A stretch of 64,000 bases of DNA from Octopus vulgaris (Eukaryota), in contig OX597840.1 of the NCBI GenBank assembly GCA_951406725.2, positions 12,772,001-12,836,000 of the forward strand. Direction: 5' to 3'. A program made the position numbers and the translations under genes. A model generated the notes under the pieces. That model did no database searches and was not told the origin of the DNA. It saw only the letters and a program-made list of their open reading frames with translations. Shown in pieces: positions 52 through 50,545 of the stretch (position 1 is its first letter; every line of letters starts with the position of its first letter).

Positions 52-216
52 CTGCAATATAATAAATGACAATAAGAATTCTAGAAACTTAAGTCAATAA
101 AATTTTTTACAAGATAGAAATGATAGAAAGAATTACACAAACAATGAAATTTTCATAATCAATCCTATAATATCCTATAATCAATCCTATAATATCCTAT
201 AATTAATCCTCTAATA

Positions 217-568
217 TCTATATATATAAAACTGAGAATGTGTGTGTGTCTGTCTGTCTGTCTGTCTGTCCGTCCGTCTGTCTGTGTGTTTCCCTAAAAC
301 TTGAGAACTACACAACCAATTTCATTCAAATTTTACACATGCCTTACGTAGGGTCCGGGGAGTGTCATTGCAAGAGACGAGCCTACAATTCCAGTCTGTT
401 ATATATTTTGAGTATTGTTATCACTAGTGATATCAAGATATAACTTTGTATTTTGTATTTTATGTGTAGATGTATATATATAGAAGTACATGTAATATGT
501 ACACATATATATACACATATATACATGCACTAGAACTATGACCCGGCAACGACGGGTCATAATGCTAG
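217..568 (+). mobile_element. Non-autonomous Helitron-like element inserted in the satellite
   Basis: 5' TCTATATATATAAAA, (GTCT)n tract, 3' hairpin ATGACCCG-gcaacga-CGGGTCAT then CTAG, between host A and T, no TSD. Confidence 0.75.
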
Positions 569-781
569 TATGCTATAATTAATCTTATAATATCCTACAA
601 TTAATCGCATCATATCCTATAATTAATCCTATAATATCCTATAATTGATCCTATAATATCCTATAATCAATCCTATAATATCTTATAATTAATCCTATAA
701 TATCCTATAATTAATCTTATAATATCCTATAATTAATCCTTTAATATCCTGTAATTAATCCTTTAATATCCTATAATCATA

Positions 782-1780
782 TCTATAAAAGGGTGGATGT
801 GTGTGCGTGTGTGTGTGTACGTGATAGTAATTTATGCACGTCCACAAATTAGCATGCATGTAGCTCAAATGTTAGGACATTTGTCAACACCCTATCTGGG
901 TTTTGTCAACTTAATTTTTTCTCCGAGGGATCCGTGGGTAGCGTAAATATCTAATTTCAGACATAGCTTTAAGCCACAAAAAATATCGGACTTAGCTTTT
1001 TTGCCAGCGTCTAACAAAAAAATAAGATAAAGAAAAGTGGAAGAAGGAGGCAGAGAGTTTCATGGGAAAGACAAGGTGAGAGAGGGAGAGAGAGAGTAAG
1101 TGACCACATTCATAAAAAATGGAATGTAAAATGTTTTGTTTTTTGTTTTTGAAATGCACACTATATGTTATAGTCATCGTATATATACTTTCTTACACAA
1201 CAATTACAATATATTTATTTTAAATCATTTATTTATTTTAAATCGTTCATCTTTCTCCCTGCTCTCTCTCTCTCTCTCACACACATTACTTTAGGTGCGA
1301 AAGAGTTTTGTTTTTATTTTATGCCAAGAAAACAAGTGTCTTGTTGACAATCCATATATTTAACAACAAAGAAACAAAGAGGTGAGTAACAATTTGTCAG
1401 TGAATTACACAATATAAATGGGTACAATTTGCGAGGCTTCCACCACAACCCACTCCGTTTCACAGACCACAAAAAGGGTTTTGAGGCCAATAATTTTTCC
1501 ATTCATTTCTGTTTATCAACATGTATGCGTGCAAAAAACATGCAATTGGTCTACATACGTACGTGTGTATATGTGTGTTCGTGTCTGTTGCCCATATGTA
1601 TTTATATTATATTATATATATATATATATAATATATATATAACATATATATATTGTAACTAATTTCAACGGATTTCGCCCAAATTTGACGTCTATATTAC
1701 ATAGTTTCAGTTGAAATAAAGAACTTGATTAGCTTAATAATCATACCTTAATCCCGGGCAAGGCCAGGTTATACTGCTAG
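782..1780 (+). mobile_element. Second non-autonomous Helitron-like element
   Basis: 5' TCTATAAAAGGG, 3' GC-rich degenerate hairpin (cccgggcaaggccagg) then tatactgCTAG|T; flanked by satellite on both sides. Confidence 0.7.
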
Positions 1781-4700
1781 TCAATACTATAATATCCTAT
1801 AATCAATCATGTAATATCCTATAATCAATCCTATAATATCCTATAATTAATCCTATAATATACTATAATTGATCCTATATGATTGTATAGTCAATCCTAT
1901 AATACACTATACTCAATCCTATAATAGCCTATAATTAATCCTATACTATCCTATTATCAATCCTATAATACATTTTAATCAATCCTATAATATCCTATGA
2001 TTAATCCTATAATATCCTATAAGCGATCCTATAATATACTATTACACTATATGATTGTATATTCAATCCTATAATACACTATAATCAATCCTATAATATC
2101 CTCTAATATCCTATAATTAATCCTATAACATCCTATAATAAATCCTATAATATTCTATAATCAAACCTATAATATCTTATAATTAATCCTATAATATCCT
2201 ATAATTAATCTTATATTATTCTGTAATTAATCCTATAATATGCTATGATTAATCTTATCAAATCCTATAATTAATCCTATAAAATTCTACAATTAATGCT
2301 ATAATATCCTATAATGAATCATAAATATCCTATAATTAATTCTCTAATACCCTGTAATCAATCCTACAATATCCTATAATTAATCCTCTAATATCCTATA
2401 ATTAATCCTATAATATCCTATAATCAATCCTAAAATATCCTATAATTAATTCTATAATACCCTGTAATCAATCCAACAAAATCCTATAATTAATCCTATC
2501 ATATCCTATACTTAATCTATAATATCCCATTATTAAGTAATCCTAAAAGACCCTGTACTCAATCCTATAATATCCTATAATTAATCCTATAATATCCTAT
2601 AATTAATTCTATGATATCCTATAATTAATCATATAATATCCTATAATTAATCCTATAAAATCCTATAATTATTCCTGTAATATCCTATAAATAATCTTAT
2701 AATAACTTATAATTAATCCAATAATAAATTCGATAATATCCTATAATTAAACCTATAATATCCTATAATTAATCTTATAATATCCAATGATTAATCCTGT
2801 AATATTCTTTAATTAATCTTAAAATATCCTATAAGTAATCTTATAGTATCCTATGATTAATCCAATAATATCCTATAATTAATCCTATAAAATCCTATAT
2901 TTTAATCGTATCATATCCTATAATTAATCCTATAATATCCTATAATTAATCCTATAATATCCTATAATTATTCCTATAATATCATATAATTAATCTTATT
3001 ATATCCTATAATTAATCCCATAATATCCGATAATTAATCTTATAATATCCTATTATTAATCCTATAATATCGTGTAATTAATCTTATAATATCCTAAAAT
3101 TAAACCAATAATATCTTACAATTAATCTTATAATATCCTATAATAAATGCTATAATTAATCCTATAATATACTATAATTAATCCTATAATATCCTATAAT
3201 TAATCCTATAATTTCCTATAATTAATCCTATAATAACCTGTGATCAATCCTACAATATCCTATAATTAATCCTATAATATCCTATAATAACCTATACTCA
3301 ATACCACAACATCCTATAATTAATCCTATAATGCCCTGTAATAAATCCTACAATATCCTATAATTAATCCTATGATATCCTAAAATTAATCTATAATATC
3401 CCTACAATTAATCTCATAATATCCTATAATTAATCCTATTATCCTATAATTAATCTTATAATATCTTATAATTAATCATATAATATCCTATAATTCATCC
3501 TATAATATCCTATTATTAATCATGTAATATCCTATAATAAATCCAATAATATCCCACAATTAATTTTTGTAATATCCTACAATTAATCCTATAATTAATC
3601 CTATAATATGCTATAAGTAATCCTATAATATCCTATAATTAATCATATAATATCCCATAATTTATCCTATAATACCCTATAATTAATCCTATTATGTCCT
3701 ATAATTATTCCTATAATATCCTATAATTAATCCTATTATATACTATAATTATTCCTATAATGTCCTTTAATTAATCCTATAATATCCTATAATTAATCCT
3801 ATAATATCCTATAATTAATCTTATAACATCCTATAATTAATCCTATGATATCCTATAATTATTCTCATAATATCCTATAATTAATGCTATAATATCCTAT
3901 AATTATTCCTATAATATCATATAATTAATCTTCTAATATCCTATAATTAATCCAATGATATCCTACAATTAATCTTATAATATTCTATAATTAATCTTAT
4001 AATTAATCCTATAATATCCTATAATTAATCTTATAATACCCTGTAATCAATCATACAATATCCTATAACAAATCCTATAATACCTTGTAATCAATCCTAC
4101 AATATCCTATAATTAATCCTATAATATCCTAAAATTAATCTTATAATAACCTGTAATCAATACCATAATATCCTATAATTAATCCTATAATACCTTTTAA
4201 TCAATCCTACAATATCCGATAATTAATCCTATGATATCCTAAAATTTATCTAGAATATCCCATTATTAAGTAATCCTACAAGACCCTCTAATCCTATAAT
4301 ATCCTACAATTAATCCTATAATATCCTATAATTAATCTTATAATATACTATAATTAAGTTTATAATATCCTATAATAAATCCTCTAATATCCTATAATTA
4401 ATCTTATAATATCCTATAATTAATTTTATAATATCCTATAATTAATCCTTTAATATCCTATAATTAATCTCATAATATCCTCTAATTAATCCTATGATAT
4501 CTTATAATTAATGTTATAACATCCTATAATTAATCCTATAATATCCTAGAATTATTCCGATAATATCTTATAATTAATCTTACAATATCCTATAATTAAT
4601 CCAATAATATCCTACAATTAATCTTATAATATCCTATAATTAATCCTATAATTAATCCTATAATATCCTATAATTAATCCTATAATATCCTATAATTAAT

Positions 4701-7700
4701 CCTATAATATCCTATAATTAATCTTATAATAACCTATAATCAATACCACAATATCCTATAATTAATCCTATAATACCCTGTAATCAATCCTACAATATCC
4801 TATAATGAATCCTATTATATCCTAAAATTAATCCATATTATCCCATTATTAACTAATCCTAAAAGACCCGGTAATCAATCCTATAATATCCTATAATTAA
4901 TCCAATAATATCCTATAATTATTCCTATAATATCTAATAAATAATCTTAAAATATCCTATAATTAATCTTATAATATCCTATAATTAATCTTATAATATC
5001 CTATAATTAATCCTATAATGCCCTATAATTATTCCTATAAAATTCTTTAATTCATCGCATCATATCCTATAATTAATCTTATAATATCCTATAACTAATC
5101 CTATAATATCCTATAATTAATCATGTATTATCCTATAATTAATCCAATAGTATCCTACAATTATTCTTATAATATCCTATAATTAATCCTATAATATCCT
5201 ATAATTAAACATAATAATCTCCTATAATTAATCTTATAATATGATATAATATTATCTCCTATAATATATATACTATATATTATAATATCTATCTATAATT
5301 AATCCTATAATATCCTATAATTAATCCTATAATACCCTATAATTAATCCTATAATATCCTATAATTAATCCTATAATATCCTATAATTAATCTTATAATA
5401 TCCTATAATTAATCCTATAATATCCTATAATTAATCCTATAATATCCTATAATTAATCCTATAATATCCTATAATTAATCTTATAATTAATCCTATAATA
5501 TCCTATAATTAATCTTATAATACCCTGTAATCAATCATACAATATCCTATAAGAAATCCTATAATACCTTGTAATCAATCCTACAATATCCTATAATTAA
5601 TCCTATAATATCCTATAATTAATCTTATAATAACCTGTAATCAATACCACAATATCCTATAATTAATCCTATAATACCTTGTAATCAATCCTACAATATC
5701 CGATAATTAATCCTATGATATCCTAAAATTTATCTAGAATATCCCATTATTAAGAACTCCTACAAGACCCTCTAATCCTACAATATCCTACAATTAATCC
5801 TATAATATCCTATAATTAATCTTATAATATCCTATAATTAATCATATAATATCCTATAATTAATCCTATAATATCCTATAATTAATTTTATAATATCCTA
5901 TAATTAATCCTTTAATATCCTCTAATTAATATCATAATATCCTCTAATTAATCCAATGATATCTTATAATTAATGTAATAACATCCTATAATTAATCCTA
6001 TAATATCCTAGAATTATTCCGATAATATCCTATTATTAATCATGTAATATCCTATAATTATTCCAATATCCATAATTAATTTTATAATATCCTAAATCTA
6101 TAATATCTATAATATCCTATAATATCCTAAATTATTAATATCCTATAATTAATCCTATAATATCCTATAATTAATCCTATAATATCCTATAATTAATCAT
6201 ATAATATCCTATAATTTATCCTATAATACCCTATGATTAATCTTATTATATCCTATAATTATTCCTATAATATACTATAATTATTCCTATAATGTCCTTT
6301 AATTAATCCTATAATATCCTATAATTAATCCTATTATATCCAATAATTAATCTTATAACATCCTATAATTAATCCTATTATATCCTATAAATAATCTTAT
6401 AATATCCAATAATTAATCCAATAATATCCTACAATTAATCTTATAATAACCTATAATTAATCTTTTGATTAATCCTATAATATCCTATAATTAATCTTAT
6501 AATACCCTGTAATCAATCATACAATATCCTATAACAAATCCTATAATACCTTTGTAATCAATCCTACAATATCCTATAATTAATCCTATAATATCCTACA
6601 ATAATAATCTTATAATAACCTGTAATCAATACCACAATATCCTATAATTAATCCTATAATACCTTGTAATAAATCCTACAATATCCGATAATTAATCCTA
6701 TGATATCCTAAAATTTATCTAGAATATCCCATTATTAAGTAATCCTACAAGACCTCTAATCCTATAATATCCTACAATTAATCCTATAATATCCTATAAT
6801 TAATCTTATAATATACTATAATTAATCCTATAATATCCTATAATTAATCCTATAATATCCTATAATTAATCTTATAATATCCTATAATTAATCCTATAAT
6901 ATCTATAATTAATCCTATAATATCCTACAATTAATTTTATAATATCCTATAATTAATCCTTTAATATCCTATAATTAATCTTATAATATCCTATAATTAA
7001 TCCTATGATATCTTATAATTAATGTTATAACATCCTATAATTAATCCTATAATATCCTAGAATTATTCCGTTAATATCCTATAATTAATCTTATAATATC
7101 CTATAATTAATCCAATAATATCCTACAATTAATCTTATAATATCCTATAATTAATCCTATAATAAATCCTATAATATCCTATAATCAATCCTATAATATC
7201 CTATAATTAATCCTATAATATCCTATAATTAATCTTATAATACCCTGTAATCAATCCTACAAAATCCTATAAGTAATCCTATAATATCCTATAATTAATC
7301 TTATAATAACCTATAATCAATACCACAATATCCTATAATTAATCCTATAATACCCTGTAATCAATCCTACAATATCCTATAATGAATCCTATGATATCCT
7401 AAAATTAATCCATAATATCCTATTATTAACTAATCCTAAAAGACCCTGTAATCAATCCTATAATATCCTATAATAATCCTATAATATCCTATAATTAATC
7501 TTATAATATCCTCTAATTAATCCTATAATAACCTATAATTAATCCCGTAATATCCTATAATTAATCTTATAATATCCTATAATAATCCTATAATGTCCTA
7601 TAATTAATCATATAATATCCTATTTTTAATCCTATAATATCCTATAATTAAACATATAATATCCTACAATTAATCTTATAATATCCTACAAATAATCCTA

Positions 7701-10700
7701 TAATATCCTATCATTCATCTTATAATATCCTATAAGTGATCCTATGACATCCTATAATTAATCTTATAAAATCCTATAATTAATCGCATCATATCCTATA
7801 ATTAAACTTATAATATCCTCTATAATATCCTTAATTAATCCTATAATATCCTATAATTAATCCTGTAATATCCTATAATTAATCTTATAATATCCTATAA
7901 TTAATCCTATAATATCCTATAATTAATCTTATAATATCCTATAATTAATCCTATAATATCCTATAATTAATCCTATAATATCCTACAATTAATCTTATAA
8001 TTTCCTGTAGTTAATCCTATAAATAATCCTATAATATCTTATAATTAATCCTATAATATCCTATAATTAATCCTATAATATCCTATAATCAATCTTATAT
8101 TAACCTATAATCAATACCACAATATCATATAATTAATCTGTAATACCCTGTAATCAATCCTACAATATCCAATAATTAAACCTATGATATCCTAAAATTA
8201 ATCTATAATATCCCATTATTAAATAATCCTAAAAGACCCTGTTATCAATCCTATAATATCCTATAATTATTCCTATAATATCTAATAAATAATCTTAAAA
8301 TATCCTATAATTAATTTTTTAATATCCTATAATTAATCCTATAATATCCTATAATTAATCCTATAATATCCAATAAATAATCTTAAAATATCCTATAATT
8401 AATGTTTATAATATCCTATAATTAATCCTATAATATCCTATAATTAAACATATAATCTCCTATAATTAATCCTATAATATCCTATAATTAATCCTATAAT
8501 ATCCTATAATTAATCTTATAATATCCTATTATTAATCCTATAATACTCTATAATTAATCCTATAATATCCTATAATTATTCCTATAATATCCTATAATTA
8601 TTCTTATAATACCCTGTAATCAATCCTACAAAATCCTATAAGTAATCCTATAATATCCTATAATTAATCTTATAATTACCTATAATCAATACCACAATAT
8701 CCTATAATTAATCCTATAATACCCTGTAATCAATCCTACAATATCCTATAATGAATCCTATGATATCCTAAAATTAATCCATAATATCCCATTATTAACT
8801 AATCCTAAAAGACCCGGTAATCAATCCTATAATATCCTATAATTAATCCTATAATATCCTATAATTATTCCTATAATATCTAATAAATAAACTTAAAATA
8901 TCCTATAATTAATCCTATAATATCCTATAATTAATCCTATAATATCCTATAATTATTCCTATAATATCTAATAAATAATCTTAAAATATCCTATAATTAA
9001 TCTTATAATATCCTATAATTAATCTTATAATATCCTATAATTAATCCTATAATGCCCTATAATTAATCCTATAAAATTCTTTAATTCATCGCATCATATC
9101 CTATAATTAATCTTATAATATCCTATAATTAATCCTATAATATCCTATAATTAATCCTATAATATCCTATAATTAATCTTATAATATCCTACAATTAATC
9201 TTATAATATCCTATAATTATCCCTTTAATATCCAATTATTAATCCTATAATATCCTATAATTAATCCTATAATATCCTATAATTAAACATATAATCTCCT
9301 ATAATTAATCTTATAATATGCTATAATTATTCCTATGATATCCTATTATTAATATGATAATATCCTATAATTAATCCTATAATACTCTATAATTAATCCT
9401 ATAATATCCTAAAATTATTCTTATAATATCCTATAATTAATCTTTTAATATCCTATGATTAATTCTATAATATCCTATAATTAATCCTATAATATCCAAT
9501 AGTTATTCCTATAATTAATCCTATGATTAATCTTTTAATATCCTATAATTAATCCAATAATATCCTACAATTAATCTTATAATATCCTATAGTTAATACT
9601 ATAATTAATCCTATAATATCCTATAATTAATCTTATAATAACCTATAATCATATATCCTATAACAAATCCTATAATTAATCAATCCTATAATATCCTATA
9701 ATTAATCCTATAATATCCTATAATTAATCTTATAATAACCTATAATCAATACCACAATATCCTATAATTAATCCTATAATACCCTGTAATCAATCCTACA
9801 ATATCCTATAATGAATCCTATGATATCCTAAAATTAATCTATAATATCCTATTATTAAATAATCCTAAAAGACCCTGTTATCAATCCTATAATATCCTAT
9901 AATCATTCCTATAATATCCTATTATTAATCCTATAATATCCTATAATTAATCCTACGAAATCCTATAATTAATCCTGTAATATCCTACAATTAATCTTAT
10001 AATATCCTACAATTAATCCTATAATATCCTATCATTCATCTTATAATATCCTATAAGTGATCCTATGACATCCTATAATTAATCTTATAAAATCCTATAA
10101 TTAATCGCATCATATCCTATAATTAATCTTATAATATCCTCTAATTAATCCTATAATAACCTATAATTAATCCTGTAATATCCTATAATTAATCTTATAA
10201 TATCCTATAATAATCCTATAATGTCCTATAATTAATCCTATAATATCCTATAATTAATCCTATAATATCCTATAATTAATCTTATAATATCCTATAATTA
10301 ATCCTATAAAATCCAATAATTATTCTTATAATATCCAATAAATACTCTTAAAATTTCCTTTATTAAAGTTTATAATATCCTATAATAAATCCTATAATAT
10401 CCTATAATTAATCTTATAATATCCTCTAATTAATCCTATAATAACCTATTATTAATCATATAATATCCTATAATTAATCTTATAATATCCTATAATTAAT
10501 CCTATAAAATCCAATAATTATTCTTATAATATCCAATAAATAATCTTAAAATATCCTTTATTAAAGTTTATAATATCCTATAATAAATCCTATAATATCC
10601 TATAATTAAACATATAATCTTCTATTATTAATCTTATAATATGCTATAATTAATCCTTTGATATCTTATAATTAATCTTATAATATCCTATAATTAATCC

Positions 10701-12225
10701 TATAATACTCTATAATTAATCCTATAATATCCTATAATTATTCCTATAATATGCTATAATTAATCCTACAATACTATATAATTAATCCTATAATATCCTA
10801 TAATTATTCCTATAATATCCTATAATTTTTCCTATAATATCCCATAATTAATCTTATAATATCCTATAATTAATCCTTTAATATCCTATAATTAATCTTA
10901 TAATATCCTATGATTAATTCTATAATATCCTATAATTAATCCTATAATATCCTATAGTCATTCCTATAATTAATCAGGTAATTAATCTTATAATGTCCTA
11001 TAATTAATCCAATAATATCCTACAATTAATCTTATAATTTCCTGTAGTTAATCCTATAATATCCTATAATTAATCCTATAATATCCTATAATTAATCCTA
11101 TAATATCCTATAATTAATCTTATATTAACCTATAATCAATACCACAATATCCTATAATTAATCTGTAATACCCTGTAATCAATCCTACAATATCCAATAA
11201 TTAATCCTATGATATCCTAAAATTAATCTATAATATCCCATTATTAAATAATCCTAAAATACCCTGTTATCATTCCTATAGCATCCTATAATTAATCCTA
11301 TGATATCCTAGAATTATTCTTATTATATCCTATAATTAATCCTATAATAACCATTAATTAATCCTATAATATCCTATAATTAATCTTATAATATCCTATA
11401 ATTAAGTTTATAATATCCTATAATAAATTCTATAATATCCTATGATTAATCTTATAATATCCTATAATTAATCTTATAATATCCTATAATTAATCCTATA
11501 ATATCCTATAATTAATCTTATAATATCCTATTATTAATCCTATAATATCCTATAATTAATCCTATAAAATCCTATAATTAATCGCATCATATCCTATAAT
11601 TAATCTTATAATATCCTCTAATTAATCCTATAATAACCTATAATTAATCCCGTAATATCCTATAATTAATCTTATAATATCCTATAATAATCCTATAATG
11701 TCCTATAATTAATCATATAATATCCTATTATTAATCCTATAATATCCTATAATTAAACATATAATATCCTACAATTAATCTTATAATATCCTACAATTAA
11801 TCCTATAATATCCTATCATTCATCTTATAATATCCTATAAGTGATCCTATGACATCCTATAATTAATCTTATAAAATCCTATAATTGATCCTATAATATC
11901 CTATAATTAATCCTATAAAATCCTATAATTAATCGCATCATATCCTATAATTAAACTTATAATATCCTCTAATTAATCCTATAATAACCTATAATTAATC
12001 GTGTAATATCCTCTAATTAATCTTATAATATCCTATAATAATCCTATAATGTCCTATAATTAATCATATAATATCCTATTATTAATCCTATAATATCCTA
12101 TAATTAAACATATAATATCCTACAATTAATCCTATAATATCCTATAATTAATCTTATAATATCCTACAATTAATCCTATAATATCCTATCATTAATCTTA
12201 TAATATCCTACAGTTAATCCTATAA
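1781..12225. repeat. 22-bp AT-rich satellite (ATAATATCCT+ATAATTAATCCT), ~10.4 kb; short outliers at ~155-216 and 569-780
   Basis: Hundreds of tandem, diverged copies of a 10+12 nt dimer sharing the core ATCCTATAAT; stops in all frames. Confidence 0.97.
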
Positions 12226-12329
12226 AAAGGCAGCACTTATTATTTTGTTGTAGGCTTTTGCTTTAAGAAATATGGTTTTTGTGAGTCCCAGTGGGCAGCA
12301 AGCAAACAGAAGAACATTTCAGGGTGGCA

Positions 12330-13260
12330 TACACTCTAGCTACACTAGTGTATATAACATTACAACCAAATATTCATCATATCTTTTCTTATATATATAT
12401 GTCTGTATCTCCAACCAGCAATCATTAAGCAATTAATTAATAAAACTAGCAGGTGTCTGTCCAATCTATCCGTTGATAAAACACTTTTGTAAAGGTTGTC
12501 CCATACAATAATGCTGCATTAGAACTGTCCAACTTTAAGGATTGCATAAACTACATTGACCCAAATGCAGATAGATCAAGAAGACACAGATAGAGGAAAA
12601 TCTTATGGTTTAACACATCTTATAGCATGAATGTAGCTACTAACATAGCTAGGAGATTCTTAATATTAAAAGACATGCACTTTCTACATTCACACAAAAA
12701 CCAGATCTTCAACAGAAACACTCTTAAATTTAGCTATAGTTACCTCCTCAATATAAGGTCGATAATATTCAACCACAATAAAAATAAACACACCAGAAAT
12801 ATCCCTGAAAGACACTGTAACTATAGGTCTTCAAATCACTGTCCTCTAAATAATAGATGTCTAGAAAAAGAAAAGTATATACGAGACGAAAAATCATGAA
12901 TCTCAATGGAGTAACAATGGCATATATCAGAATATCAGGCACCTCGTTCAAGAAAAAATAGACACAACACCTGGTGCCATTTAGGGACAAAAATGAAAGC
13001 GATATGTTACATCCCTATCCTATATGATAGGGATACTGAAAGACGGGAAGTAAGCAACCCCCAAATAACATGGAACATCATTGCTTAAGCCAGAAAATAC
13101 AGGGGACAAGTACCAAATGTGAACTCTGTATCACTAAAAATCTAAATATAATCCAGTCAATAGATAACATTTTTAATATTAGAGATGATACCTTCTCTCC
13201 CTGCATACAGAAGTAATATTATACACTCTGACATTTCAAAAAGGAACCACCACTCACTCC
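12330..13260 (+). mobile_element. Degenerate Penelope-like element, 3' part (RT C-terminus, Cys linker, GIY-YIG)
   Basis: Fragments ILWFNTSYSMNVATNIARRFL, IFNRNTLKFSYS, HCNYRSSNHCPLNNRCL match Penelope ORF motifs; frameshifts and stops. Confidence 0.8.
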
Positions 13261-13309
13261 ACCATTCTCAACAGGATAGTTTCTTTGCCAGAAAAAATTT
13301 ATTATACAG

Positions 13310-13560
13310 ATATTGTGGCCAAGAGAAATCAAATGTGAAAGAAAGAACACTGCGCAGGTACAGACATGTGAAGCATATGGATGAGGGCAGCTTTATAAAA
13401 AAGAGCCAATCACTAAATGTAGCTGGATCTTCTAGAAAAGGAAGACCCAGAAAGACAGGACACAGAGTGGTGGAGGCTGACTTCAGGACTCTGAGCCTCA
13501 CAAAGGTAATGACAAAGCACCAGAATATCTGGTGATATGTGGTTCTCAAGAACAACTGCA
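13310..13560 (+). mobile_element. Degenerate RTE-clade LINE 3' ORF fragment
   Basis: ERTLRRYRHVKHMDEGSFIKK...RKGRPRKT resembles LRWYGHVARMDEDSCVKK...GRGRPRKTW at 46642-46917. Confidence 0.65.
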
Positions 13561-13564
13561 TGCA

Positions 13565-13765
13565 AGGTGGTGAGCTGGCTGAAATGTTAGCACACCAGCC
13601 GACATGATTACTGGAATTTCGTCTGCCGTTACATTCTGAGTTCAAATTCTACCAAGGTCGACTTTGCCTTTCATCCTTTCAAGTCGATTAAAGAAGTACC
13701 AGTTACATACTGGGGTCGATGTAATCGACTTAATCTCTTTGATGTCCTTGTTTGTCCCCTTTGTG
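13565..13765 (+). mobile_element. tRNA-derived SINE, family 1 (GGCGAGCTGGCAGAAACGTTAGCAC head)
   Basis: Box A-like GAGCTGGCTGAAATG, box B GAGTTCAAATTC; same family at 31396, 42183, 58465-59243, 60735. Confidence 0.8.
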
Positions 13766-13788
13766 TGTATGTATTGCATATGTTCATA

Positions 13789-13840
<52 letters not shown>

Positions 13841-13954
13841 TAGATAGATAGATAGATAGACAGGTAGAGAGACAGATACATACATGCATACATACATACA
13901 TACATATATATATATGAATATACATATATGTATATCTATATCTACATATCTGTC

Positions 13955-13999
<45 letters not shown>

Positions 14000-14097
14000 A
14001 ATATCCTGGTATCTTGGTATGAGATCACAATGATGTGCACATATGAAAAATTATTTGGATATTACGATATTTTTCTTAATATGAAACCAATGGTAAT

Positions 14098-14450
14098 ATC
14101 ATCATCATCATCATCATCGTTTAACGTCCGTTTTCCACGCTAGCATGGGTTGGACGGTTCAACTGGGGTCTGGGAAGCCAGGAGGCTGCACCAGGCTCCA
14201 GTCTGATCTGGCAGTGTTTCTACAGCTGGATGCCCTTCCTAACGCCAACCACTCCACGAGTGTAGTGGGTGCTTTTTACGTCCCACCGGCACATGTGCCA
14301 GGGGAGTCTGGCATCGGCCACGATCAGATGGCGCTTTTAACGTACCACCGGCACAGGTATCACAGCTACTATTTCCATTGATATTTATTTCGATGTTCAT
14401 GTTCATGTACTTGACTCAAATAGGTCTCCTCAAGCACAGTGGTGTTCGGA
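14098..14450 (-). mobile_element. RTE-type LINE 3' end with (GAT)n tail
   Basis: (CAT)n-CGTTTAACGTCCGTTTTCCA...GGATGCCCTTCCTAACGCCAACC; same sequence is attached to the RTE ORF at 46053-46937. Confidence 0.75.
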
Positions 14451-14727
14451 TGGTGTCTTAAGATATGGGTGTGTGTGTGTGTGTGTGTACACAGATACAG
14501 ACCTATATAAGAAAAGATCTGATGAATATTTGGTTGTAATGTTATATACACTAGCGTAGCTAGAGTGTATAATATATAAATATATATATATATTATACAC
14601 ATGCATCCAAACACCACTTCATTCACTGCAATACCAAGATTAACATAAAAATTTAACCAGTTCAACCAGGAAGCATATTACAGTGAAGACCCTGACGAAA
14701 CTACATTGCTTGCACATATATATATAT

Positions 14728-14899
14728 ATGTGGCTGTGTAGTAAGTAGCTTGCTTACCAACCACATGGTTCTGGGTTCAATCCCATTGCGTGGCACTTTG
14801 GGCAAGTGTCTTCTGCTATAGCCCCGGGCCAACCAATTCCTTGTGAGTGGATTTGGTAGACGGAAACTGAAAGAAGCCTGTCGTATATATGTATATATC

Positions 14900-14930
<31 letters not shown>

Positions 14931-15140
14931 TTGTGTATCTGTGTTTGTCCCCACTAGCATTGCTTGGCAACCAATGCTGGTGTGTTTACGTCCCCGTCAC
15001 TTAGCAGTTCGGCAAAAGAGACCAATAGAATAAGTACTGGTCTTACAAAGAATAAGTCTCGGGGTCGAGTTGCTCGATTAAAGGTGGTGCTCCAGCATGG
15101 CTGCAGTCAAATGACTGAAGCAAGTAAAAGAGTAAAATGC
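14728..15140 (+). mobile_element. tRNA-derived SINE, family 2 (GTGGCTGTGTGGTAAG head, internal microsatellite, GTAAAAGA tail)
   Basis: Box A TGGCTGTGTAGTAAG, box B GGTTCAATCCC; many dispersed copies in the window. Confidence 0.85.
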
Positions 15141-15142
15141 GT

Positions 15143-15365
15143 ATACTCTTTACTCTCTACTCTTTTACTTGTTTTAGTCATGTGACTGTGGCCATGCTGG
15201 GGCACCGCTTTTAGTCAAGCAAATCTACCCCAGGATTTATTCTTTGCAAGTCTAGTACTTATTCTATCAGTCTCTTTTGCTGAACTGCTACGTTACAGGG
15301 ACATAAATACACCAGCATCAGTTGTCAAGCAATGTTGGGAGGGGGGGTACAAACACAGACACACA
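15143..15365 (-). mobile_element. SINE family 2, 3' half, tail-to-tail with the preceding copy
   Basis: Reverse complement of the 14940-15140 type sequence. Confidence 0.8.
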
Positions 15366-15380
15366 TACATACATATATAC

Positions 15381-15413
<33 letters not shown>

Positions 15414-15522
15414 CTCAAATGTGGAAGTGATATATCTCGACTTTGCAAAGGCCTTTGATAAAGTCGATCATGGAATGATATGTCACAAACTGTGTGATCT
15501 TGGCATAGTTGGAAAATTGGGA
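15414..15522 (+). mobile_element. Truncated CR1-group LINE RT fragment
   Basis: VIYLDFAKAFDKVDHGMICHKL; near-identical to the start of the longer copy at 44058. Confidence 0.85.
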
Positions 15523-16117
15523 GTATGGTGGGGTGGCGTAGTTCGAAGGCGAAAACAATGCGAATGCATTGTGACCAGCGATGTGTAGCAACATCTGATT
15601 GTCTGGTCAGTCACGTGATTACGTGACATATATATATATATAGCAAATAAGAAAATGGAGAAGCACATTAGTTGGTTCATCAACTTTAGGACATTAAAAT
15701 GTTGACTTATTTATTTATCAAAACAACGACCATAATAACATACATACATACAGTATAATATTCAATGCATATAAGATAAGAATACAAGCAATTATTAAAA
15801 AACATGAATATAAATTATTAAGTTAACAATTTTAATATCCTAAAGTTGATGAACCAACTAATGTGCTTCTCCATTTTCTTATTTGCTATATAAATTAATG
15901 GTAAAATATCTCATTAACTTCATCCATTTAATTCAATAGGTAAGTTAATTGCAATGCAATTAAAAACACTGGTGTATTAATAATTGGGTATTATACCAAC
16001 AGTATATTGGATAAATATTATCCCTTACTTGGTTGGATCCACAACCCCTAACTTTCTTGGAGTTATACATATATATATATATATACATGTTTGTATATAC
16101 ACACACACATATATACA

Positions 16118-16171
<54 letters not shown>

Positions 16172-17951
16172 ACAAAGGTTAAAATTAATTAATTAAGAAG
16201 TAATCTGTAATTTCACCAAGTAGAATTTGGCATGAAAAAGACCATTTCATGGTAAGCTTAAGTAATACTTTATAATTAGGGTTCAGCAAAGATTTGCTTC
16301 ACCACATACCAAAGCTTAGAAATAGCAGTTAAAAAATCTTAGCTATTCCTTCTACTTTAAAAGGGGCTCCCAGAAAAACCAAAGTACTTGAAAACAATCC
16401 ATGCAGGCAAAAGGGAAAAATAATGAAAATCCTTTTAAAGTAGAAGGAATAGCTCAGATTTTTTGACCGCTATTTCTAAACTTCGGTATGTGGTGAAGCA
16501 AATCTTTGCTGAACCCTAATTATAAAGTACATATATATATTATGTATATGGGCACCTCACTCAATCAATAATTCCCCCCTGGAGATACCATAAATTCATT
16601 GACATTCTCTCTCCTAATTGTGATCAGCCATGATGCTTCCCCACAAACTCTTCTTCAATCTCTCCTCTCAGACATTAACCATCATTTAACACAAGGACAC
16701 ATCCTCTTACTCAGGTTTTGCAAACTTAAGATCTATATATCAACCTTAAGAGTGCCATTGCACTGTGAAATGGTTGATATTAAGATCATGAAGTTGTAAA
16801 AACCATTCCAAAGCAGACAATGCAACCTGGTGCAATCTTTGGATTGATTCTTGTTAATCCATGCAACCCATAACACCATAGATCAAGGACATGACATGAT
16901 AATGATCAATCAGATGCAGAACAAATATTAAACAGATGAATACATAACCAAAAGTTTCATAAAACACAACACAAAATGCATCACAAGGGACCACAAACTA
17001 AAATCAATAATATATGATATGAACTCAAAACCAAAAATCTTTTATCAATAAAACATCACATGTAAACCAAAACTCCTAATGATTACCTTCAGGAGTCCAG
17101 CACTTATTTTGGACATACTTGTACAACACTCTATTGACAGTTTCCTTTGCACTTACAACGAAACTCTGTACGACATACCATAAAACATACTTAGATAGAA
17201 AAATACTAAAAGATGACACTTGCACACTCCATGAAATTTGTCACCAGAAAAGACCATATACTGTACATACCACAATACAAAGTTAACATAAAACACAAAC
17301 AATTAACACATGGTGGCTGGCATGAAAAACCTAACAGATAACACAAAAAATTAACGTGTGATTTTTAATGAAGAAACTTAACGATGTTAAATTTTTGCGA
17401 CAAACTCGGCAGAAAAAAGAAAAATGAGTCAATAGATTTATAAAACTGAATGAAGATGTCAAAACTATTTCAAATTTAAAAATAAGGCTGTGAAGTTCTG
17501 GAATGTATATTTAGAAATTGATTGTTCTACAGTCACTGAAGAAAAATCTGATTTAAAAAAATACGGAATATATAGATATGTAGTTACATACATACACACA
17601 TACACACATACATACATACACATATATATATACATACATACGTACATACATACATACATACATACATACATACATGCATACTTATATATATATATATACA
17701 TATATGCATGATATATATACATGTATACATACAGTTAAAGATATGTATATATATATTGATTGATTGATTCTAGTTTCAGCTCATGAGCTGTGGCCATGCT
17801 GGGGCACCGCCATTTATATATTTATATATATTTATATATTTAATAATAATAATATTAGGGAATATTATTCCAAACTTACAGGGAAAAATTCAATTGAGTA
17901 ATACTAAATCAAATTTCACAATATATATATATATATATAAATAAATATATA

Positions 17952-17988
<37 letters not shown>

Positions 17989-17989
17989 T

Positions 17990-18745
17990 GATAAAACGGT
18001 AAGATAACAAAAGAAAGAAAGAGACCTCAATATTATGTAAATAGAGGAAATTTATCTATACAATATGTTACATTACTCGGTAGTCAAGATAAAACTCTGA
18101 GTTTCAGATGCCGAAGTGGAAATCCACAACACCATCTCTTCGGTTATCTGGCTATTTGAAAACGTTATGAAAAAATACCGTTAAATAAAGGGAAATTACT
18201 CTGTTATAACTCTGCTTGCCTGCGTACTTATACATCGCTCGCATTTTTCGTCATAAAAATTATATAAAAATACATAAAAAATATATAAAAATATATAAAT
18301 TCTTCTTGGGACATAACATAGAAAGCATGTTCTATCTGTTTTCTTTAGGGGACCAAAAACGTAACAGAAACTTAGTCACATGTGGGCATGATCCGAAAAG
18401 CTCTGTCCTTGTATTTAGACATGTAGTAGGGTCTAAGCTGCTTTTCCAGATAAGCCATCTCTCCATGTCGCATAGACCGCACTTTCCGCTGCCGTTATTA
18501 TAGGGCTTACATCTGGCCAAAATCTTCCATTGTATGTTATAATCGACACCTTTATCTCTTAAAGACCAAATATGATTAGACAATTGTGTCGCTTTTCTTT
18601 TGTTCCAGTGCCTAAAGCTCAAAGTGTGGTTATTGAACCTGGCCTTGAAATTACCCTCTGGTAAGAGATGGTGTTGTGGATTTCCACTTCGGCATCTGAA
18701 ACTCAGAGTTTTATCTTGACTACCGAGTAATGTAACATATTGTAT

Positions 18746-18750
<5 letters not shown>
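17990..18750 (-). mobile_element. Penelope-like 3' fragment (GIY-YIG C-terminus) with inverted terminal duplication, flanked by (TA)n
   Basis: EGNFKARFNNHTLSF...LSNHIWSLRDKG...WKILARCKPY...CGLC; 18054-18140 is inverted at 18663-18749. Confidence 0.85.
18087..18149 (-). ncRNA. Variant minimal type I hammerhead-like motif in the Penelope 3' repeat
   Basis: AGATAA-CCGAAGA-GATG...CATC-t-GAAA-CTC-a-GAG-TT-TTATCT; stems I-III pair but the core is non-canonical (CCGA, extra T). Confidence 0.45.
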
Positions 18751-18795
<45 letters not shown>

Positions 18796-19016
18796 GTTTC
18801 ATATTCTGTTGAACTGACCCAAAAATTTTACTGTTTGCAAAACAAGGAAGTTTTCTTTATAGAAACTACGTATAAGTTTTCAGTAACTAGATACAAGGGT
18901 GTTTAAAAAAATGTGATAAACCATACATTTGTTCACATGATATTATTGTATAACTATTTTAGAACAAACAATTCTTCCTTGTAAGAGATTTTCTTCACTG
19001 GAATTCTCTTCCTGGT

Positions 19017-19084
<68 letters not shown>

Positions 19085-19123
19085 ATATACATATATGAAT
19101 ATATGTGTATGTATCTATATATA

Positions 19124-19163
<40 letters not shown>

Positions 19164-19358
19164 CATACATATATGTATGTATATATATATATATACATAT
19201 ATATACACACACATATATATACACATACACATCACACACACATATAGATATATACAAGTTTGTATATACAAATATGTTTATAAATCTATATGTATTTATA
19301 AGTTTATATACAAACACATGTCCACAAACACACATATATACTTATATACACATATATA

Positions 19359-20627
19359 CAGGGTGAGATGGGTAAATTGTCTCCATTTTATATTTTTTAT
19401 TGTACGCATGCTCATTGTTTGTTTTTAATTTTCTCAACTACACAGCATAGTAGGGTCAGTTGGGCACCATCTGTGAGGAAAACAATACTATGGCCAGAAA
19501 TTTTTAAATGACATGCTGTATAGCTTGGCATTCATTCTGGAAGCTATTTCCCCTATGAACATTTCGGATTGTTTGGGTGTCAATCTGAGGACAGCGCAGA
19601 GGAATCGGGAAGAGTTTGAATGAGTCTATTGTTGATTATGAAGATATGGCAGCTCAAAAAACTCACTCTGATCATTCTGATAAGAAAAGAACTCTTGACC
19701 TTGTTGGTGAGGTTCAAGACATGGATTCCAAGACAATCAGTTCCATCACCAGGGACATGGGAATGTCTGAGTTTCTTATCAGACAGGTAGTGTGTGAAGA
19801 CGTTTATTATTCCTCATACAAGACGAGAAACAACCAGTTTTTATCCCAAGCCATTAAGGACAAGAGGAAAGACTCCTCTACGAAGTTTTTGAACAAACTC
19901 AAGTATCACCTCCAACCGAACATGCATTGGTTTTTCTCTGACAAGAAAATTTTCTCCCAGGATCAGATGGTAAACACAGAACAACTGTTGGCTTGCTGTG
20001 CCCCGAAAACATGTACCGAGAATGATAAAAATCAAGCAACCAGTTAACATCATGGTGTCTGGAGTGATCACTAGCGATGGCGAGGTTATGCCACTGATCA
20101 TCTTTCCACACGACCTCACACTCAACATGGGAACCCACATCAAGTGCCTGGAGGAGGTAGTGCTGCCTTGGGTCAAGATGGTGACTACTGGAAGACCATA
20201 TGTCTGGTAAACAGGACTCTGAACCATATCACACAAGCAGGAGAATCCAGTCATAGCTGTCTGACAATTTCTGCGATCACACCACCCCTAACATCTAACT
20301 CCCCAGACTGCAACCCCTTTGATTATGTGTGGGGTACATGTGAGCAAGAGACCAACAAAACTCCTTGTAACACCAAAGATGAACTGAAGGCAAGGATTAT
20401 GGCAGCATTCACCAACTTGAACAAGGAGACCGTCCAGAAGGGTTGAGGAGATTCCAAAGTCGTCTGGCAGGTGTGATTTAAGCCAATGGCGATTTTATTG
20501 AATAAATTTACTTTTTATTATTTCAAGATATTTTAATGTAATTTTAGTAAATATATCTGTTAAAATGAGATGTCAGTGTTTTTTCATTTTTGTGTAAGTT
20601 AGATGACAATTTATTCACTGCACCTTG
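19359..20627 (+). mobile_element. Tc1/mariner superfamily transposon (maT/DD37D-like), degenerate transposase
   Basis: TA|CAGGGTGAGATGGGTAAATTGTC ... GACAATTTATTCACTGCACCTTG|TA imperfect TIRs, 1269 bp; motifs WFFSDKKIF, IMVSGVITSDG, SPDCNPFDYVWG in shifted frames. Confidence 0.85.
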
Positions 20628-20640
20628 TACACACACACAC

Positions 20641-20680
<40 letters not shown>

Positions 20681-20940
20681 ATGTATGCATGTATGTATAT
20701 ATATATATATATATATTTAATCATTATAGGGTGGCAAAAAATTTTGTAGAATTTTTTTGCCACCAGCGGCCTAGTGGGAAAAAATTAAATAGTCATAGAC
20801 CATTTATAAGTTCAACATCACAATCAAGGAACGGCCATAATAGGCCATTCACCCACTAGAAATAACAGCCAAAGCTTCAACCGCAAAATAACATTAATTC
20901 CGCAAACCAGGAGAAAATTAAAAAAACATTTACCTTGTAA

Positions 20941-21045
20941 TTTCTTATACGATGCACCGTTTCATCTATTGTTTAATGGTAAACTAACCTGATTAAATTA
21001 AATCAAGCCAATCTTCCATAGGCCGATAGATTCGTCAGTAAGAAA
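20941..21045 (-). ncRNA. Type I hammerhead ribozyme, copy 1
   Basis: TTTCTTA-CTGACGA-ATCTAT...ATAGAT-GAAA-CGGTGCATCG-TA^TAAGAAA; 7-bp stem I, 6-bp stem II, quasi-palindromic stem III, GUA cleavage triplet. Confidence 0.8.
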
Positions 21046-21430
21046 ACAGCCAGATCGGAACATATATTTTCACGAGGCACTTCTGTCCCTGCCTCGGCAA
21101 TATCTGACCTAAAATTTTCAAATCATCGCACTCGCGCCAAATTTATCGGCAGCAAATAAATATAAGCCGCCGATTCCATTACGGAATTAACCAGAAAATT
21201 CATAATTAATCAATATAGGGTGGCAAAAAATTTTGTAGAATTCTTTTTGCCACCAGCGGCCTAGTGGGAAAAAATTAAATAGTCATAGACCATTTATAAG
21301 TTCAACATCACAATCAAGGAACGGCCATAATAGGCCATTCACCCACTAGAAATAACAGCCAAAGCTTCAACCGCAAAATAACATTAATTCCGCAAACCAG
21401 GAGAAAATTAAAAAAACATTTACCCTGTAA

Positions 21431-21535
21431 TTTCTTATACGATGCACCGTTTCATCTATTGTTTAATGGTAAACTAACCTGATTAAATTAAATCAAGCCG
21501 ATCTTCCATAGGCCGATAGATTCGTCAGTAAGAAA
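21431..21535 (-). ncRNA. Type I hammerhead ribozyme, copy 2
   Basis: Same core and stems exactly 490 nt from copy 1; lies in the spacer of the fold-back. Confidence 0.8.
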
Positions 21536-21953
21536 AAAGCCAGATCGGAACATATATTTTCACGAGGCACTTACAGGGTAAATGTTTTTTTAATTTTCTC
21601 CTGGTTTGCGGAATTAATGTTATTTTGCGGTTGAAGCTTTGGCTGTTATTTCTAGTGGGTGAATGGCCTATTATGGCCGTTCCTTGATTGTGATGTTGAA
21701 CTTATAAATGGTCTATGACTATTTAATTTTTTCCCACTAGGCCGCTGGTGGCAAAAAAATTCTACAAAATTTTTGCCACCCTATATTGTTTAATTATGAA
21801 TTTTCTGGTTAATTCCGTAATGGAATCGGCGGCTTATATTTATTTGCTGCCGATAAATTTGGCGCGAGTGCGATGATTTGAAAATTTTAGGTCAGATATT
21901 GCCGAGGCAGGGACAGAAATGCCTCGTGAAAATATATGTTCCGATCTGGCTGT

Positions 21954-22058
21954 TTTCTTACTGACGAATCTATCGGCCTATGGAAGATTGGCTTGATTTA
22001 ATTTAATCAGGTTAGTTTACCATTAAACAATAGATGAAACGGTGCATCGTATAAGAAA
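21954..22058 (+). ncRNA. Type I hammerhead ribozyme, copy 3 (inverted arm)
   Basis: CTGACGA 21961-21967, GAAAC 22036-22040, GTA 22049-22051, stem I 21954-21960/22052-22058. Confidence 0.8.
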
Positions 22059-22199
22059 TTACAGGGTAAATGTTTTTTTAATTTTCTCCTGGTTTGCGGA
22101 ATTAATGTTATTTTGCGGTTGAAGCTTTGGCTGTTATTTCTAGTGGGTGAATGGCCTATTATGGCCGTTCCTTGATTGTGATGTATATATATATATATA

Positions 22200-22483
22200 T
22201 ATAAATTAATAATAAAATATTAGGGAATAAATCCAAACTTACAGGGAAAAAGCAGATTTAGGATTAAATCCAATTTTATAGTATAAATATATTATATATA
22301 TTATATTATATTAAATTAGAGATAAAACCACTATTAGGCAAAACAAATAATGAAAAACATAAGCCAATACATAAAATTAATTAATTTATATTATTTTAAA
22401 ATAATATAAATTAATTAATTTTATGTATTGGCTTATGTTTTTCATTATTTGTTTTGCCTAATAGTGGTTTTATCTCTAATTTA

Positions 22484-22490
<7 letters not shown>
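22200..22490. repeat. AT-rich element with ~90-bp fold-back, probable truncated/inverted Penelope terminus; copy at 46945-47250
   Basis: ATTATATTAAATTAGAGATAAAACCACTATTAGGC... and its reverse complement nearly abut; head TATTAGGGAATAAATCCAAACTTACAGGGAAAAA also at ~17850. Confidence 0.6.
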
Positions 22491-22542
<52 letters not shown>

Positions 22543-22645
22543 GTATATGTATATATATACATACATATAAATATATATATATATATATATATGCATGTAT
22601 GTATGTATATATATATATATATATATGCATGTATGTATGTATATA

Positions 22646-22680
<35 letters not shown>

Positions 22681-22682
22681 AT

Positions 22683-22714
<32 letters not shown>

Positions 22715-23645
22715 GTATATGTATATATATACATATATATATATATGTATATATATAGACATATATAGACATATATATATATATACACATACATAGATAT
22801 ATACACATACATAGATATATATATATATACATATTTGTATAAATATTGAGGTTATAAGTGCTTATGTATATATATATATATACACACACACACAGAAAGA
22901 AAGAGAGATATGCATATCTATATATATATGAGCGTTTGTATGCACGTGTATGTACATACATACATTCATAATATAGAGAAAAACGGAATAGTTTACCTAA
23001 AACTCATGCATGCAATGTGTTTGGCGGTTTTTAATTATTTAAACAAATCTACAGTATTTGTTGCATGTTGATTCGGAGTTCAGCACGCTACAATATGTAT
23101 CATCAGCGGATTATATATCCGAAAAAGAAGACACTCTAAATGTAAGACACATAACGTGCTTACAGAATTGACCAATGGCTTGCATTCATAAAGAACTATA
23201 AAGCTAAGTGCTGTAAGCATGCAGAACCATTCCATATATAGAGTGACCAGCCATATAATTAGCTTCCTATAAATATATATGTATATGTATATTTAATTTA
23301 AAATTTAATAAGGGTAGAAATTGATATTAATCAATTAAAACCAGTGGCCCAGCATATTAAAAAATCCGAAGATTAAAATATTTTTGCAGACAAAATTTAA
23401 AGGACTGACCACTAAAAGTGGACGGTCAACATGCTAGATATAGACGTCAAGTCGCTATTTTCCACGAAGAATATGTTCTCAAATAAAAACTCAGCACAAA
23501 ACCAAAGCATTAAAAATATTTTATTTATTTGAGAACATATATTTTGTGGAAAATAGCGATTTGACGTCTATATCTAGCATGTTGACCGTCCACTTTTTGA
23601 GTGGTCAGTCCTTTATGTATGTATATGTATATATAGTCAACATAC

Positions 23646-23759
23646 CTTTTGTTTAGGATAACCAACAACTGGAGGAATCAGTTTTCTTTCTTCATAATCA
23701 CCTCCAAAACCAGCTTTACACATATATGATCCATTATCAATAACAATGGAAGCAACCAT
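23646..23759 (-). CDS. Divergent actin-like gene A, coding exon 1 (38 codons)
   Basis: caagcATGG context; [38 protein letters not shown]|gtatgt; matches actin [34 protein letters not shown]. Too short for the ORF track. Confidence 0.9.
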
Positions 23760-24570
23760 GCTTGTGTTTTTAGGTTGGATAGAATATTTCTGGCTGATGT
23801 ATAGAAATATTAATGTTCAGTTTCTTAGTGTTGTGGCTTGTGGGATGTGAGCTTGTCTCAAATTTAGCTTCTGGTCCTTGGTAAGAGTAAAAATGTTATG
23901 GGAAAACAGGTACAATAGTAATTTATATACGTTTCATATTCTGTTGAACTGACCAATAACTTTTACTGTTTGCAAAACAAGGAAGTTTTCTTCATAGAAA
24001 TATGTATATGTTTTCAGTAACTAGATACAAGGATGTTTAAAAAAATGTGATAAACCATACATTTGTTCACATGATATTATTGTATAAATATTTTAGAACA
24101 AACAATTCTTCCTTGTAAGAGATATTCTTCACTGGAATTCTCTTCCTGGTCCTATCTTTCCCCAAAGGTTGTGACTTCATTAGGAACATTCGTAGTATGA
24201 ATCACACCAACTGAAAAGGGCCTACAAAGGTCTTAGGGGTTGCCTCTACCTCCAGATCCTGGAAGGGAAGAGAAAAAGGAAAAAGAAACACCTTCACAAA
24301 TTGATAATGGGTGATTCTAGATTAATAACTCAACACTGGGGACCCAATTATTTTCTATTTCATAAATAGGTGCAGGTATGAAGGCAGCGAGCTGACAGAA
24401 ACTTCTTTCCATGCAGGAAATGAGGAATAGATAGACAGCCGACAACTGATGTAGGGTCGTCCTTTATATTAATTGTTCTGTTCTCCAATTTTTTCTCTCG
24501 TTGAGTATTTAATTAATTTGTTTTTGTATTTCACATTGTATACTATTGGTGATATCTTGTACCCATATAT

Positions 24571-24644: not shown

Positions 24645-25018
24645 ATATGGTTCCGGGTTCAGTCCCACTGTGTGGCACCTTGGGCATGTGTCTTCTACTA
24701 TAGCCTCGGGCCGGCCAATGCCTTGTGAATGGATTTGGTAGACAGAAACTGAAAGAAGCCCGTCGTATATATGTATATATATATATATATGTGTGTGTGT
24801 GTCTGTGTGTGTTTCTGTGTCTGTGTTTGTCCCCCTAGCATTGCTTGACAACCGATGCTAGTGTGTTTATGTCCCCGTTACTTAGCGGTTTGACAAAAGA
24901 GACCGATAGAATAAGTACTGGGCTTACAAAAGAATAAGTTGATTTGCTCGACTAAAGTTGATTCTCCAACATGGCCGCAGTCAAATGACTGAAACAAGTA
25001 AAAGAGTAAAAGAGTAAA
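24645..25018 (+). mobile_element. SINE family 2 (5' truncated)
   Basis: GGTTCCGGGTTCAGTCCC ... GTAAAAGAGTAAAAGAG tail. Confidence 0.85.
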
Positions 25019-33479: not shown

Positions 33480-33642
33480 CTGCAATATAATAAATGACAA
33501 TAAGAATTCTAGAAACTTAAGTCAATAAAATTTTTTACAAGATAGAAATAATAGAAAGAATTACACAAACAATGAAATTTTCATAATCAATCCTATAATA
33601 TTCTATAATCAGTCCTATAATATCCTATAATTAATCCTATAA

Positions 33643-40845: not shown

Positions 40846-40949
40846 AAAGGCAGCACTTATTATTTTGTTGTAGGCTTTTGCTGTAAGAAATATGGTTTTT
40901 GTGAGGCCCAGTGGGCAGCAAGCAAACAGAAGAACATTTCTGGGTGGCA

Positions 40950-50510: not shown

Positions 50511-50545
<35 letters not shown>

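Follow-up and report, generated by a model that had tools for sequence, protein, structure and literature searches.

A recent hammerhead retrozyme insertion in an actin-like gene intron of Octopus vulgaris, probably mobilised by Penelope-like enzymes

The window analysed here is a stretch of 64,000 nucleotides of the Octopus vulgaris genome (contig OX597840.1, forward-strand positions 12,772,001 to 12,836,000), and all coordinates below are counted from its first letter. It contains two paralogous actin-like genes, A and B. The first coding exon of gene A (23646..23759, minus strand) is followed by a GT donor at 23645 and a predicted first coding intron of 23.6 kb (52..23645) whose AG acceptor ends at 52. 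In this predicted splice model, the exon pieces join in frame at what we take to be the position where actins usually carry an intron. A tandem hammerhead ribozyme element lies in the predicted intron, 1.46 kb past the donor, with two of its ribozymes on the strand of the pre-mRNA, as a first-pass annotation of the same DNA had proposed. That annotation also described the element as absent from unit B; this agrees with our searches, which recovered no similar sequence elsewhere in the 64-kb window. The unit B actin-like exon (32868-33479) matches an actin-like protein of O. vulgaris at 100% identity. Because the left neighbour of unit B is different, being a LINE fragment, no clean empty site can be defined there.

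The surroundings are rich in repeats and rearranged pieces. Large, degenerate satellite arrays (about 80% alike) occupy the first introns of both actin-like genes at 1770-12230 and 35220-40850, the latter with internal inversions. A piece found upstream of unit B exon 1 recurs in the unit A intron (18786-19954, compared with 23921-24155 and 50196-51351); it carries a Tc1/mariner-like remnant and, as far as its sequence indicates, points to local rearrangement beside the insertion. In exon 2 of unit B (32478-33521, minus strand), two actin-like open frames are separated by an in-frame stop codon at 32865-32867; gene B may therefore be truncated or a pseudogene. The protein that it matches in the database has 242 aa. 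A third actin copy at 62448-63203 (plus strand) is more conventional, broken, and in the opposite orientation.

The element itself is composed of two arms arranged head to head. With unit position 1 defined as the base directly 3' of the ribozyme cut, the left arm (20717..21572, minus strand) comprises unit 355-490, 1-490 and 1 to about 232, or 1.76 units, and the right, inverted arm (21571..22184, plus strand) comprises unit 8-490 and 1-133, or 1.26 units. They overlap by 2 nt (TT) at the junction (21571..21572), and the 5' start of the right arm, at unit 8, is 7 nt past the ribozyme cut. Each 3' end enters (TA)n, and the two ends are about 90-100 nt apart in unit coordinates. Examined for a target-site duplication of more than 4 bp, both flanks proved to be (TA)n, the left (20641..20716) being (TA)n-rich and the right (22185..22203) a (TA)n tract. 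The sole complete cut-to-cut monomer of 490 nt is at 20948..21437 on the minus strand. Of the extent first given, 490-nt units spanning 20722..22184, the right end stands; the left end is relocated to about 20717, and one unit only is whole.

The 490-nt unit has a GC content of 36.7% and is non-coding, with longest open frames of 45 aa in sense and 60 aa in antisense. A tRNA gene search of the unit found none, and no reverse transcriptase (RT) or GIY-YIG open reading frame was found in or beside the arms. Compared with the middle unit, the copies differ at 2/135, 3/227, 4/483 and 0/133 positions, which upholds the earlier description of the units as nearly identical and young. Using a rate of 0.0036 per Myr (PMC13282606) and assuming that the copies were identical at insertion, these differences, to which assembly errors may have added, suggest an age of roughly a million years or less.

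The adjoining arms are 99% complementary across 616 nt, and such a pair could also be produced by a fold-back of the assembly or of reads, leaving a simple tandem as the only real structure. We regard this as most improbable. The junction is asymmetric, bringing unit 355 against unit 8, and the arms differ in their 3' ends, in their unique flanks and by four private differences. The end of the right arm moreover recurs in other sequencing runs, and another opposite-strand joint is present in one contig of run X9 among the loose ends listed.

Three complete type I hammerheads are found in the arms, at the places where the first-pass annotation had put them. Hammerhead 1 (21431..21535, minus strand) is predicted to cut at 21438/21437, after GUA; hammerhead 2 (20941..21045, minus strand) at 20948/20947; and hammerhead 3 (21954..22058, plus strand), which has a near-palindromic stem III of 12 nt, at 22051/22052. 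The two minus-strand cuts are spaced by exactly 490 nt, giving two consecutive units with a complete type I hammerhead in each. All three copies contain the core elements CUGACGA, GAAA and GUA, in accordance with CUGANGA / GAAA / UH, together with a stem II region of 68 nt (the motif spacer being 56 nt) and internal loops in stems I and II. A structural, pairing-aware descriptor recovered these three sites only in the 64 kb, with 7, 6 and 5 pairs in stems I, II and III, stem I being open-ended. In dinucleotide shuffles of the window, it matched in 0/200 at both the (5,4,3) and the (7,6,4) settings and in 12/200 at the loosest setting.

A search with the Rfam hammerhead models, suggested earlier as a check, failed to recover these sites: scans of a 7-kb and a 1.45-kb piece gave 73 and 7 matches, respectively, none of them to a hammerhead family, even at E<=10. 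The microRNA and snoRNA matches that did appear were rejected as microsatellite or chance hits under the gathering scores. The octopus ribozymes share the core and type I topology of Rfam families such as Hammerhead_1, and the miss is probably due to the long stem II. The stems also distinguish the element from known retrozymes: stem II is 68 nt and stem III a 12-nt palindrome, compared with a stem III of 1-2 bp plus a tetraloop in the retrozymes described in the available sources.

Folding predictions favour a dimeric form of the ribozyme. For the lone ribozyme, the active fold is predicted to be 2.2 kcal/mol above the minimum free energy and to have an occupancy of about 1-2%, because the core pairs with stem III in the predicted misfold. 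When a tandem dimer was folded, stem III formed between the two ribozymes with a probability of 0.98, and stem I of the composite hammerheads with probabilities of 0.95 for one and 0.22 for the second. The palindromic stem III is thus modelled to favour the double-hammerhead form, a behaviour reported for metazoan ribozymes (PMC4209133, PMC7229834). Folded as a circle, the sense monomer reaches -143 kcal/mol, as against -112+/-5.5 for shuffles (z = -5.7; 0/100 as low) and -102 kcal/mol for the antisense circle; with 0.59 of its bases paired, it does not exceed the shuffles (0.63).

In the literature, a non-LTR retrozyme is defined, for working purposes, by two or more tandem units in succession, every one of them with a complete type I hammerhead. 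On its sequence, the octopus element falls within this definition, and its two consecutive units and multi-copy family sustain the earlier proposal of a cephalopod retrozyme-type tandem hammerhead element. It resembles metazoan non-LTR retrozymes, as far as their published accounts extend, in its short tandem units, which are non-coding, carry a single type I hammerhead each and have a GC content below 50%, as well as in a predicted circle of low folding energy, a dimer-favouring stem III and co-occurring Penelope-like elements (PLEs). At 490 nt, the unit exceeds the range of 150-450 nt in which retrozymes were first described (PMC7229834) and is within the 51-972 nt of a later survey. It differs from the retrozymes so far described, in the text available to us, by its head-to-head locus with fixed 3' ends. 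Retrozymes of a coral, the mussel Mytilus galloprovincialis and the axolotl are expressed as circles (PMC7229834).

The unit belongs to a multi-copy family that is detectable in public sequencing runs. At least half of the unit's words are carried by 20 of the 24 run rows listed, which represent 10 studies (nine without the possible source) and four organism labels. In four runs, the variant contigs aligned to one unit numbered 1693, 637, 194 and 111, many of them below 99% identity; contig depth in these runs is not copy number. Head-to-tail joins occur in runs X7 and X14 among the loose ends listed. Loose ends in (AT)n were found at 22182 in seven contigs of X7 and at 22183 in one contig of X20, among the 24 of 128 loose-end rows listed. 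Since these ends recur at 22182-22183, the 3' end of the right arm is a recurrent end of the family. Outside these runs, exact motif scans gave no matches in metagenome contigs and none in viral contigs. A looser pattern matched 35 metagenome loci, which we attribute to chance: none had a stem I of at least 5 or a stem II of at least 4, and none aligned to the unit.

Several other signals in the runs were considered and set aside. Coverage in X14 and X20 was rejected as a sign of expression, given that their RNA origin is only guessed and no RNA run is on record among the rows listed. There was no excess of the kind expected from A-to-I editing, A>G changes making up 29/85 in these two guessed-RNA runs and 17/62 in the other two (P=0.47). 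A lone 75-nt skip within the unit has ends of AA..TT and is not an intron. An A16 loose end at 21759, seen in one contig, coincides with a genomic A-run. Low depth at 21911-21978 was dismissed, its cause being divergence of this copy from the family.

The same contigs bear on whether the unit is instead the tandem terminal repeat (pLTR) of an autonomous Penelope-like family, with the locus being a short 5'-truncated insertion that stops before the open reading frame. The insertion shape is that of PLEs (PMC8557442), genomic copies of PLE hammerheads are mostly truncated (PMC4209133), and in Xenopus retrozymes and pLTRs are homologous (10.64898/2026.07.22.740005); Logan contigs are short, and a link to an open reading frame could go undetected in them. 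Nevertheless, we consider this reading unlikely. The left arm is 1.76 periods of pure unit free of foreign sequence, and the unit has no open frame beyond 45 aa in sense and 60 aa in antisense. The share of contigs that continue into unlike sequence is 0 and 0.01 in the two large runs, and 0.01 and 0.07 in the others, and no foreign join recurs among the 24 of 128 loose-end rows listed. The three-stem hammerhead also contrasts with the minimal type of PLEs (PMC4209133).

Variation within the family suggests that the ribozyme has been maintained. Among the substitutions listed (40 of 75 rows), variants fall at 14 positions of the 105-nt ribozyme and at none of the 35 positions that form the invariant core, stem I and stem III (P=0.002), 11 of which are invariant core bases. 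The only core changes in the list are at N7 and H17 (A>C), both free positions. In stem II, the pair 21972/22031 changes from A-U to G-C, with shares that track each other across four runs (r=0.98), and the partners of the variants 22032G and 22035C are seen on the 5' side in loose ends reading GTCCA; both cases are unphased. As counter-cases, 22016 T>C disrupts a distal pair, and in a loose end from X20 stem I is altered, the partner change being absent among the rows listed. The first-pass annotation had named stem covariation among genomic copies as a point to examine, and the paired stem II changes, unphased and from the listed rows, provide it. Because the listed core variants hit free positions only and stem II shows paired changes, the ribozyme looks selected.

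These observations argue against a satellite amplified at the DNA level whose hammerheads are inactive leftovers. Such a view would suit the prediction that the monomer seldom occupies its active fold and the lack of a hammerhead match in Rfam, and 8/9 Xenopus candidates were inactive, a single one of nine predicted dimers having cleaved in vitro in that study, which ties retrozymes to the pLTRs of PLEs (10.64898/2026.07.22.740005). It is nonetheless very unlikely here, as the listed family variation spares the core and stems I and III, the fold is strand-asymmetric and G-U-rich, and the fixed 3' end into (TA)n together with the inverted arms indicates RT-mediated insertion. In our assessment, the family is probably an "active-type" hammerhead retrozyme.

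The most conserved block of the unit lies outside the ribozyme, at about unit 228-348 (121 nt; 21790..21910, plus strand), where 0/37 listed variant positions fall. This gives P=2e-5 for that window and about 0.002 as a largest-gap test. The block is directly 3' of the distal 3' end (about unit 232). Its freedom from listed variants makes it a candidate binding site for a Penelope protein or a candidate promoter. It contains another hammerhead-like motif (21835..21900, plus strand), whose core has C6 (CUGCCGA...GAAA) and whose stem III is minimal; the motif is repeated on the minus strand at about 21100-21165 (21152-21112). A relaxed descriptor finds such a motif in 4/3000 unit shuffles, and A6C hammerheads occur naturally (PMC7151607). 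The motif was rejected as a ribozyme: its constrained fold has -4.9 kcal/mol against -17.4 for alternative hairpins, a gap of 12.5, and it is probably not folded as one.

The shape of the insertion is the strongest evidence that the element was mobilised by a Penelope-like enzyme. Published traits of PLEs include partial tandems, an adjacent inverted and 5'-truncated copy, a tail and microsatellite targets (PMC8557442). At AT-rich DNA, the purified Poseidon protein of the anole nicks both strands and extends them; it initiates reverse transcription from two internal positions that lie downstream of the hammerhead, and it requires RNA 3' of these positions (PMC11167929). The octopus element resembles endonuclease-bearing (EN+) PLEs in its partial tandem and inverted 5'-truncated copy, in its two 3' ends past the hammerhead (PMC8557442, PMC4209133, PMC11167929), and in its AT-rich/(TA)n target and type I hammerhead. 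Head-to-head arms with (TA)n at both 3' ends therefore fit a Penelope-like insertion pattern. The first-pass annotation had already favoured mobilisation by Penelope elements; this is now the most likely explanation, on the strength of a shape that it had not used. There are also differences. The 3' ends are about 100 nt apart here, compared with a PLE tail of 30-40 nt, and the octopus element has a three-stem rather than a minimal hammerhead and no RT/GIY-YIG open reading frame. Lacking this frame, it cannot be classed as an autonomous PLE.

Penelope-like remnants are also present in the window. A Penelope-like GIY-YIG remnant at 17990..18856 (minus strand), 2.5 kb from the element, has its own degenerate hammerhead (core 18143, cut about 18093), which is a different type I ribozyme with one core mismatch and a palindromic stem III. 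Its insertion shape is alike: a short terminal copy lies inverted at about 18660-18750 (plus strand), and there are two (TA)n 3' ends about 66 nt apart. Two further decayed elements of RT-linker-GIY-YIG type, at 25015-28185 and 52393-54965, have a long linker rich in Asn, and a CNC-x-CP-L-x-G motif precedes their endonuclease; their ends yielded no hammerhead. A Pfam search of the PLE fragments returned no family, and the RT-like and GIY-YIG-like clusters obtained from the ESM Atlas serve as leads only. As for an autonomous partner, the unit is no closer to eight PLE-end regions in the window than its shuffles are (11-93/100 score as high). O. vulgaris has 190 PLE families, 31 of them recently active (PMC13282606).

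Taken together, we assign a probability of about 0.7 to the locus being a recently inserted member of a multi-copy family of non-coding octopus retrozymes, a non-autonomous derivative of Penelope-like elements that was mobilised by their enzymes. In the mechanism we propose, source copies would be transcribed as multimers and cut by their hammerheads, best when two of these pair through the palindromic 12-nt stem III into a double hammerhead, to yield linear monomers and circular ones, the latter probably closed by RtcB. A Penelope-like RT/GIY-YIG protein would bind the unit RNA, perhaps at block 228-348, and nick both strands of a (TA)n tract. Reverse transcription would then begin at fixed internal sites, near unit 232 on one strand and near unit 133 on the other, and the resulting cDNAs of 861 and 616 nt would be joined head to head with a 2-nt overlap. 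One of them would have halted 7 nt short of the ribozyme cut, as though its template ended there. Opposite-strand priming of two cDNAs, followed by their joining midway, would leave exactly such a locus.

The start of the right arm at 7 nt past the cut hints at a ribozyme-cut template, as a single post-hoc event with a chance of about 3% across two arms. In the anole PLE, ribozyme cleavage is dispensable for insertion (PMC11167929). A more detailed joint reading holds that priming was of the Penelope type on two strands with two fixed starts, that the templates were ribozyme-cut linear multimers and not circles, that the 121-nt block recruits the protein and may be a second hammerhead with the C6 core, and that intronic insertions form ribozyme-silencing hairpins and RNA-editing substrates. 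We offer this combination tentatively and think it unlikely to hold as a whole.

The position of the inverted arm has consequences for the host transcript, since it is transcribed ahead of both minus-strand ribozymes of the gene A pre-mRNA. In equilibrium predictions, hammerhead 1 is wholly inside a 268-bp duplex on its completion, with P(stem I) = 0, and in the full-length transcript the minimum free energy structure instead has a duplex of 616 bp, in which hammerhead 2 is masked. On these predictions, the inverted arm would sequester a single ribozyme at any moment, in a hairpin of 268 or 616 bp, and would also block the dimer; the ribozyme left unmasked would misfold by itself. As the inverted arm comes first and masks one ribozyme, release of a monomer from this locus is doubtful, and our models make excision of the 490-nt monomer from the pre-mRNA quite unlikely. 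This weakens the original suggestion that the locus can release a 490-nt RNA. With a masking hairpin and the dimer prevented, it is likelier that this copy is a passenger than that it supplies 490-nt RNA, and its effect on the host actin-like gene is probably small. The gene A intron also contains MITE-like near-perfect palindromes (15634-15895, 16266-16529, 22192-22519 and 23398-23615), further potential sources of intronic double-stranded RNA.

The class to which the element belongs is already described, including in a mollusc (PMC7229834). For octopus and other cephalopods, our search of mostly open-access literature found no description of a retrozyme beyond 235 Rfam hammerhead matches counted for the genome of the giant squid (PMC6962438); the family may be listed in supplementary material or in the repeat library deposited for O. 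vulgaris. A search of similar scope found no published report of inversion or truncation signatures in retrozymes. The present work extends non-LTR retrozymes to octopus, in a ribozyme form that Rfam overlooks, and annotation by Rfam alone would miss the octopus family.

The finding also bears on how animal retrozymes move. In the published sources available to us, the case for their mobilisation by PLEs is built on co-occurrence and on homology to pLTRs; here, the insertion ends themselves bear the PLE signature. As a young and abundant family, the octopus retrozymes provide a computational test bed for determining which enzyme mobilises them in animals. The same family can address the question of the template, namely whether it is a circle or a ribozyme-cut linear RNA. 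If the reading of two start sites on a linear template is true, the family would be a record of how retrozymes move.
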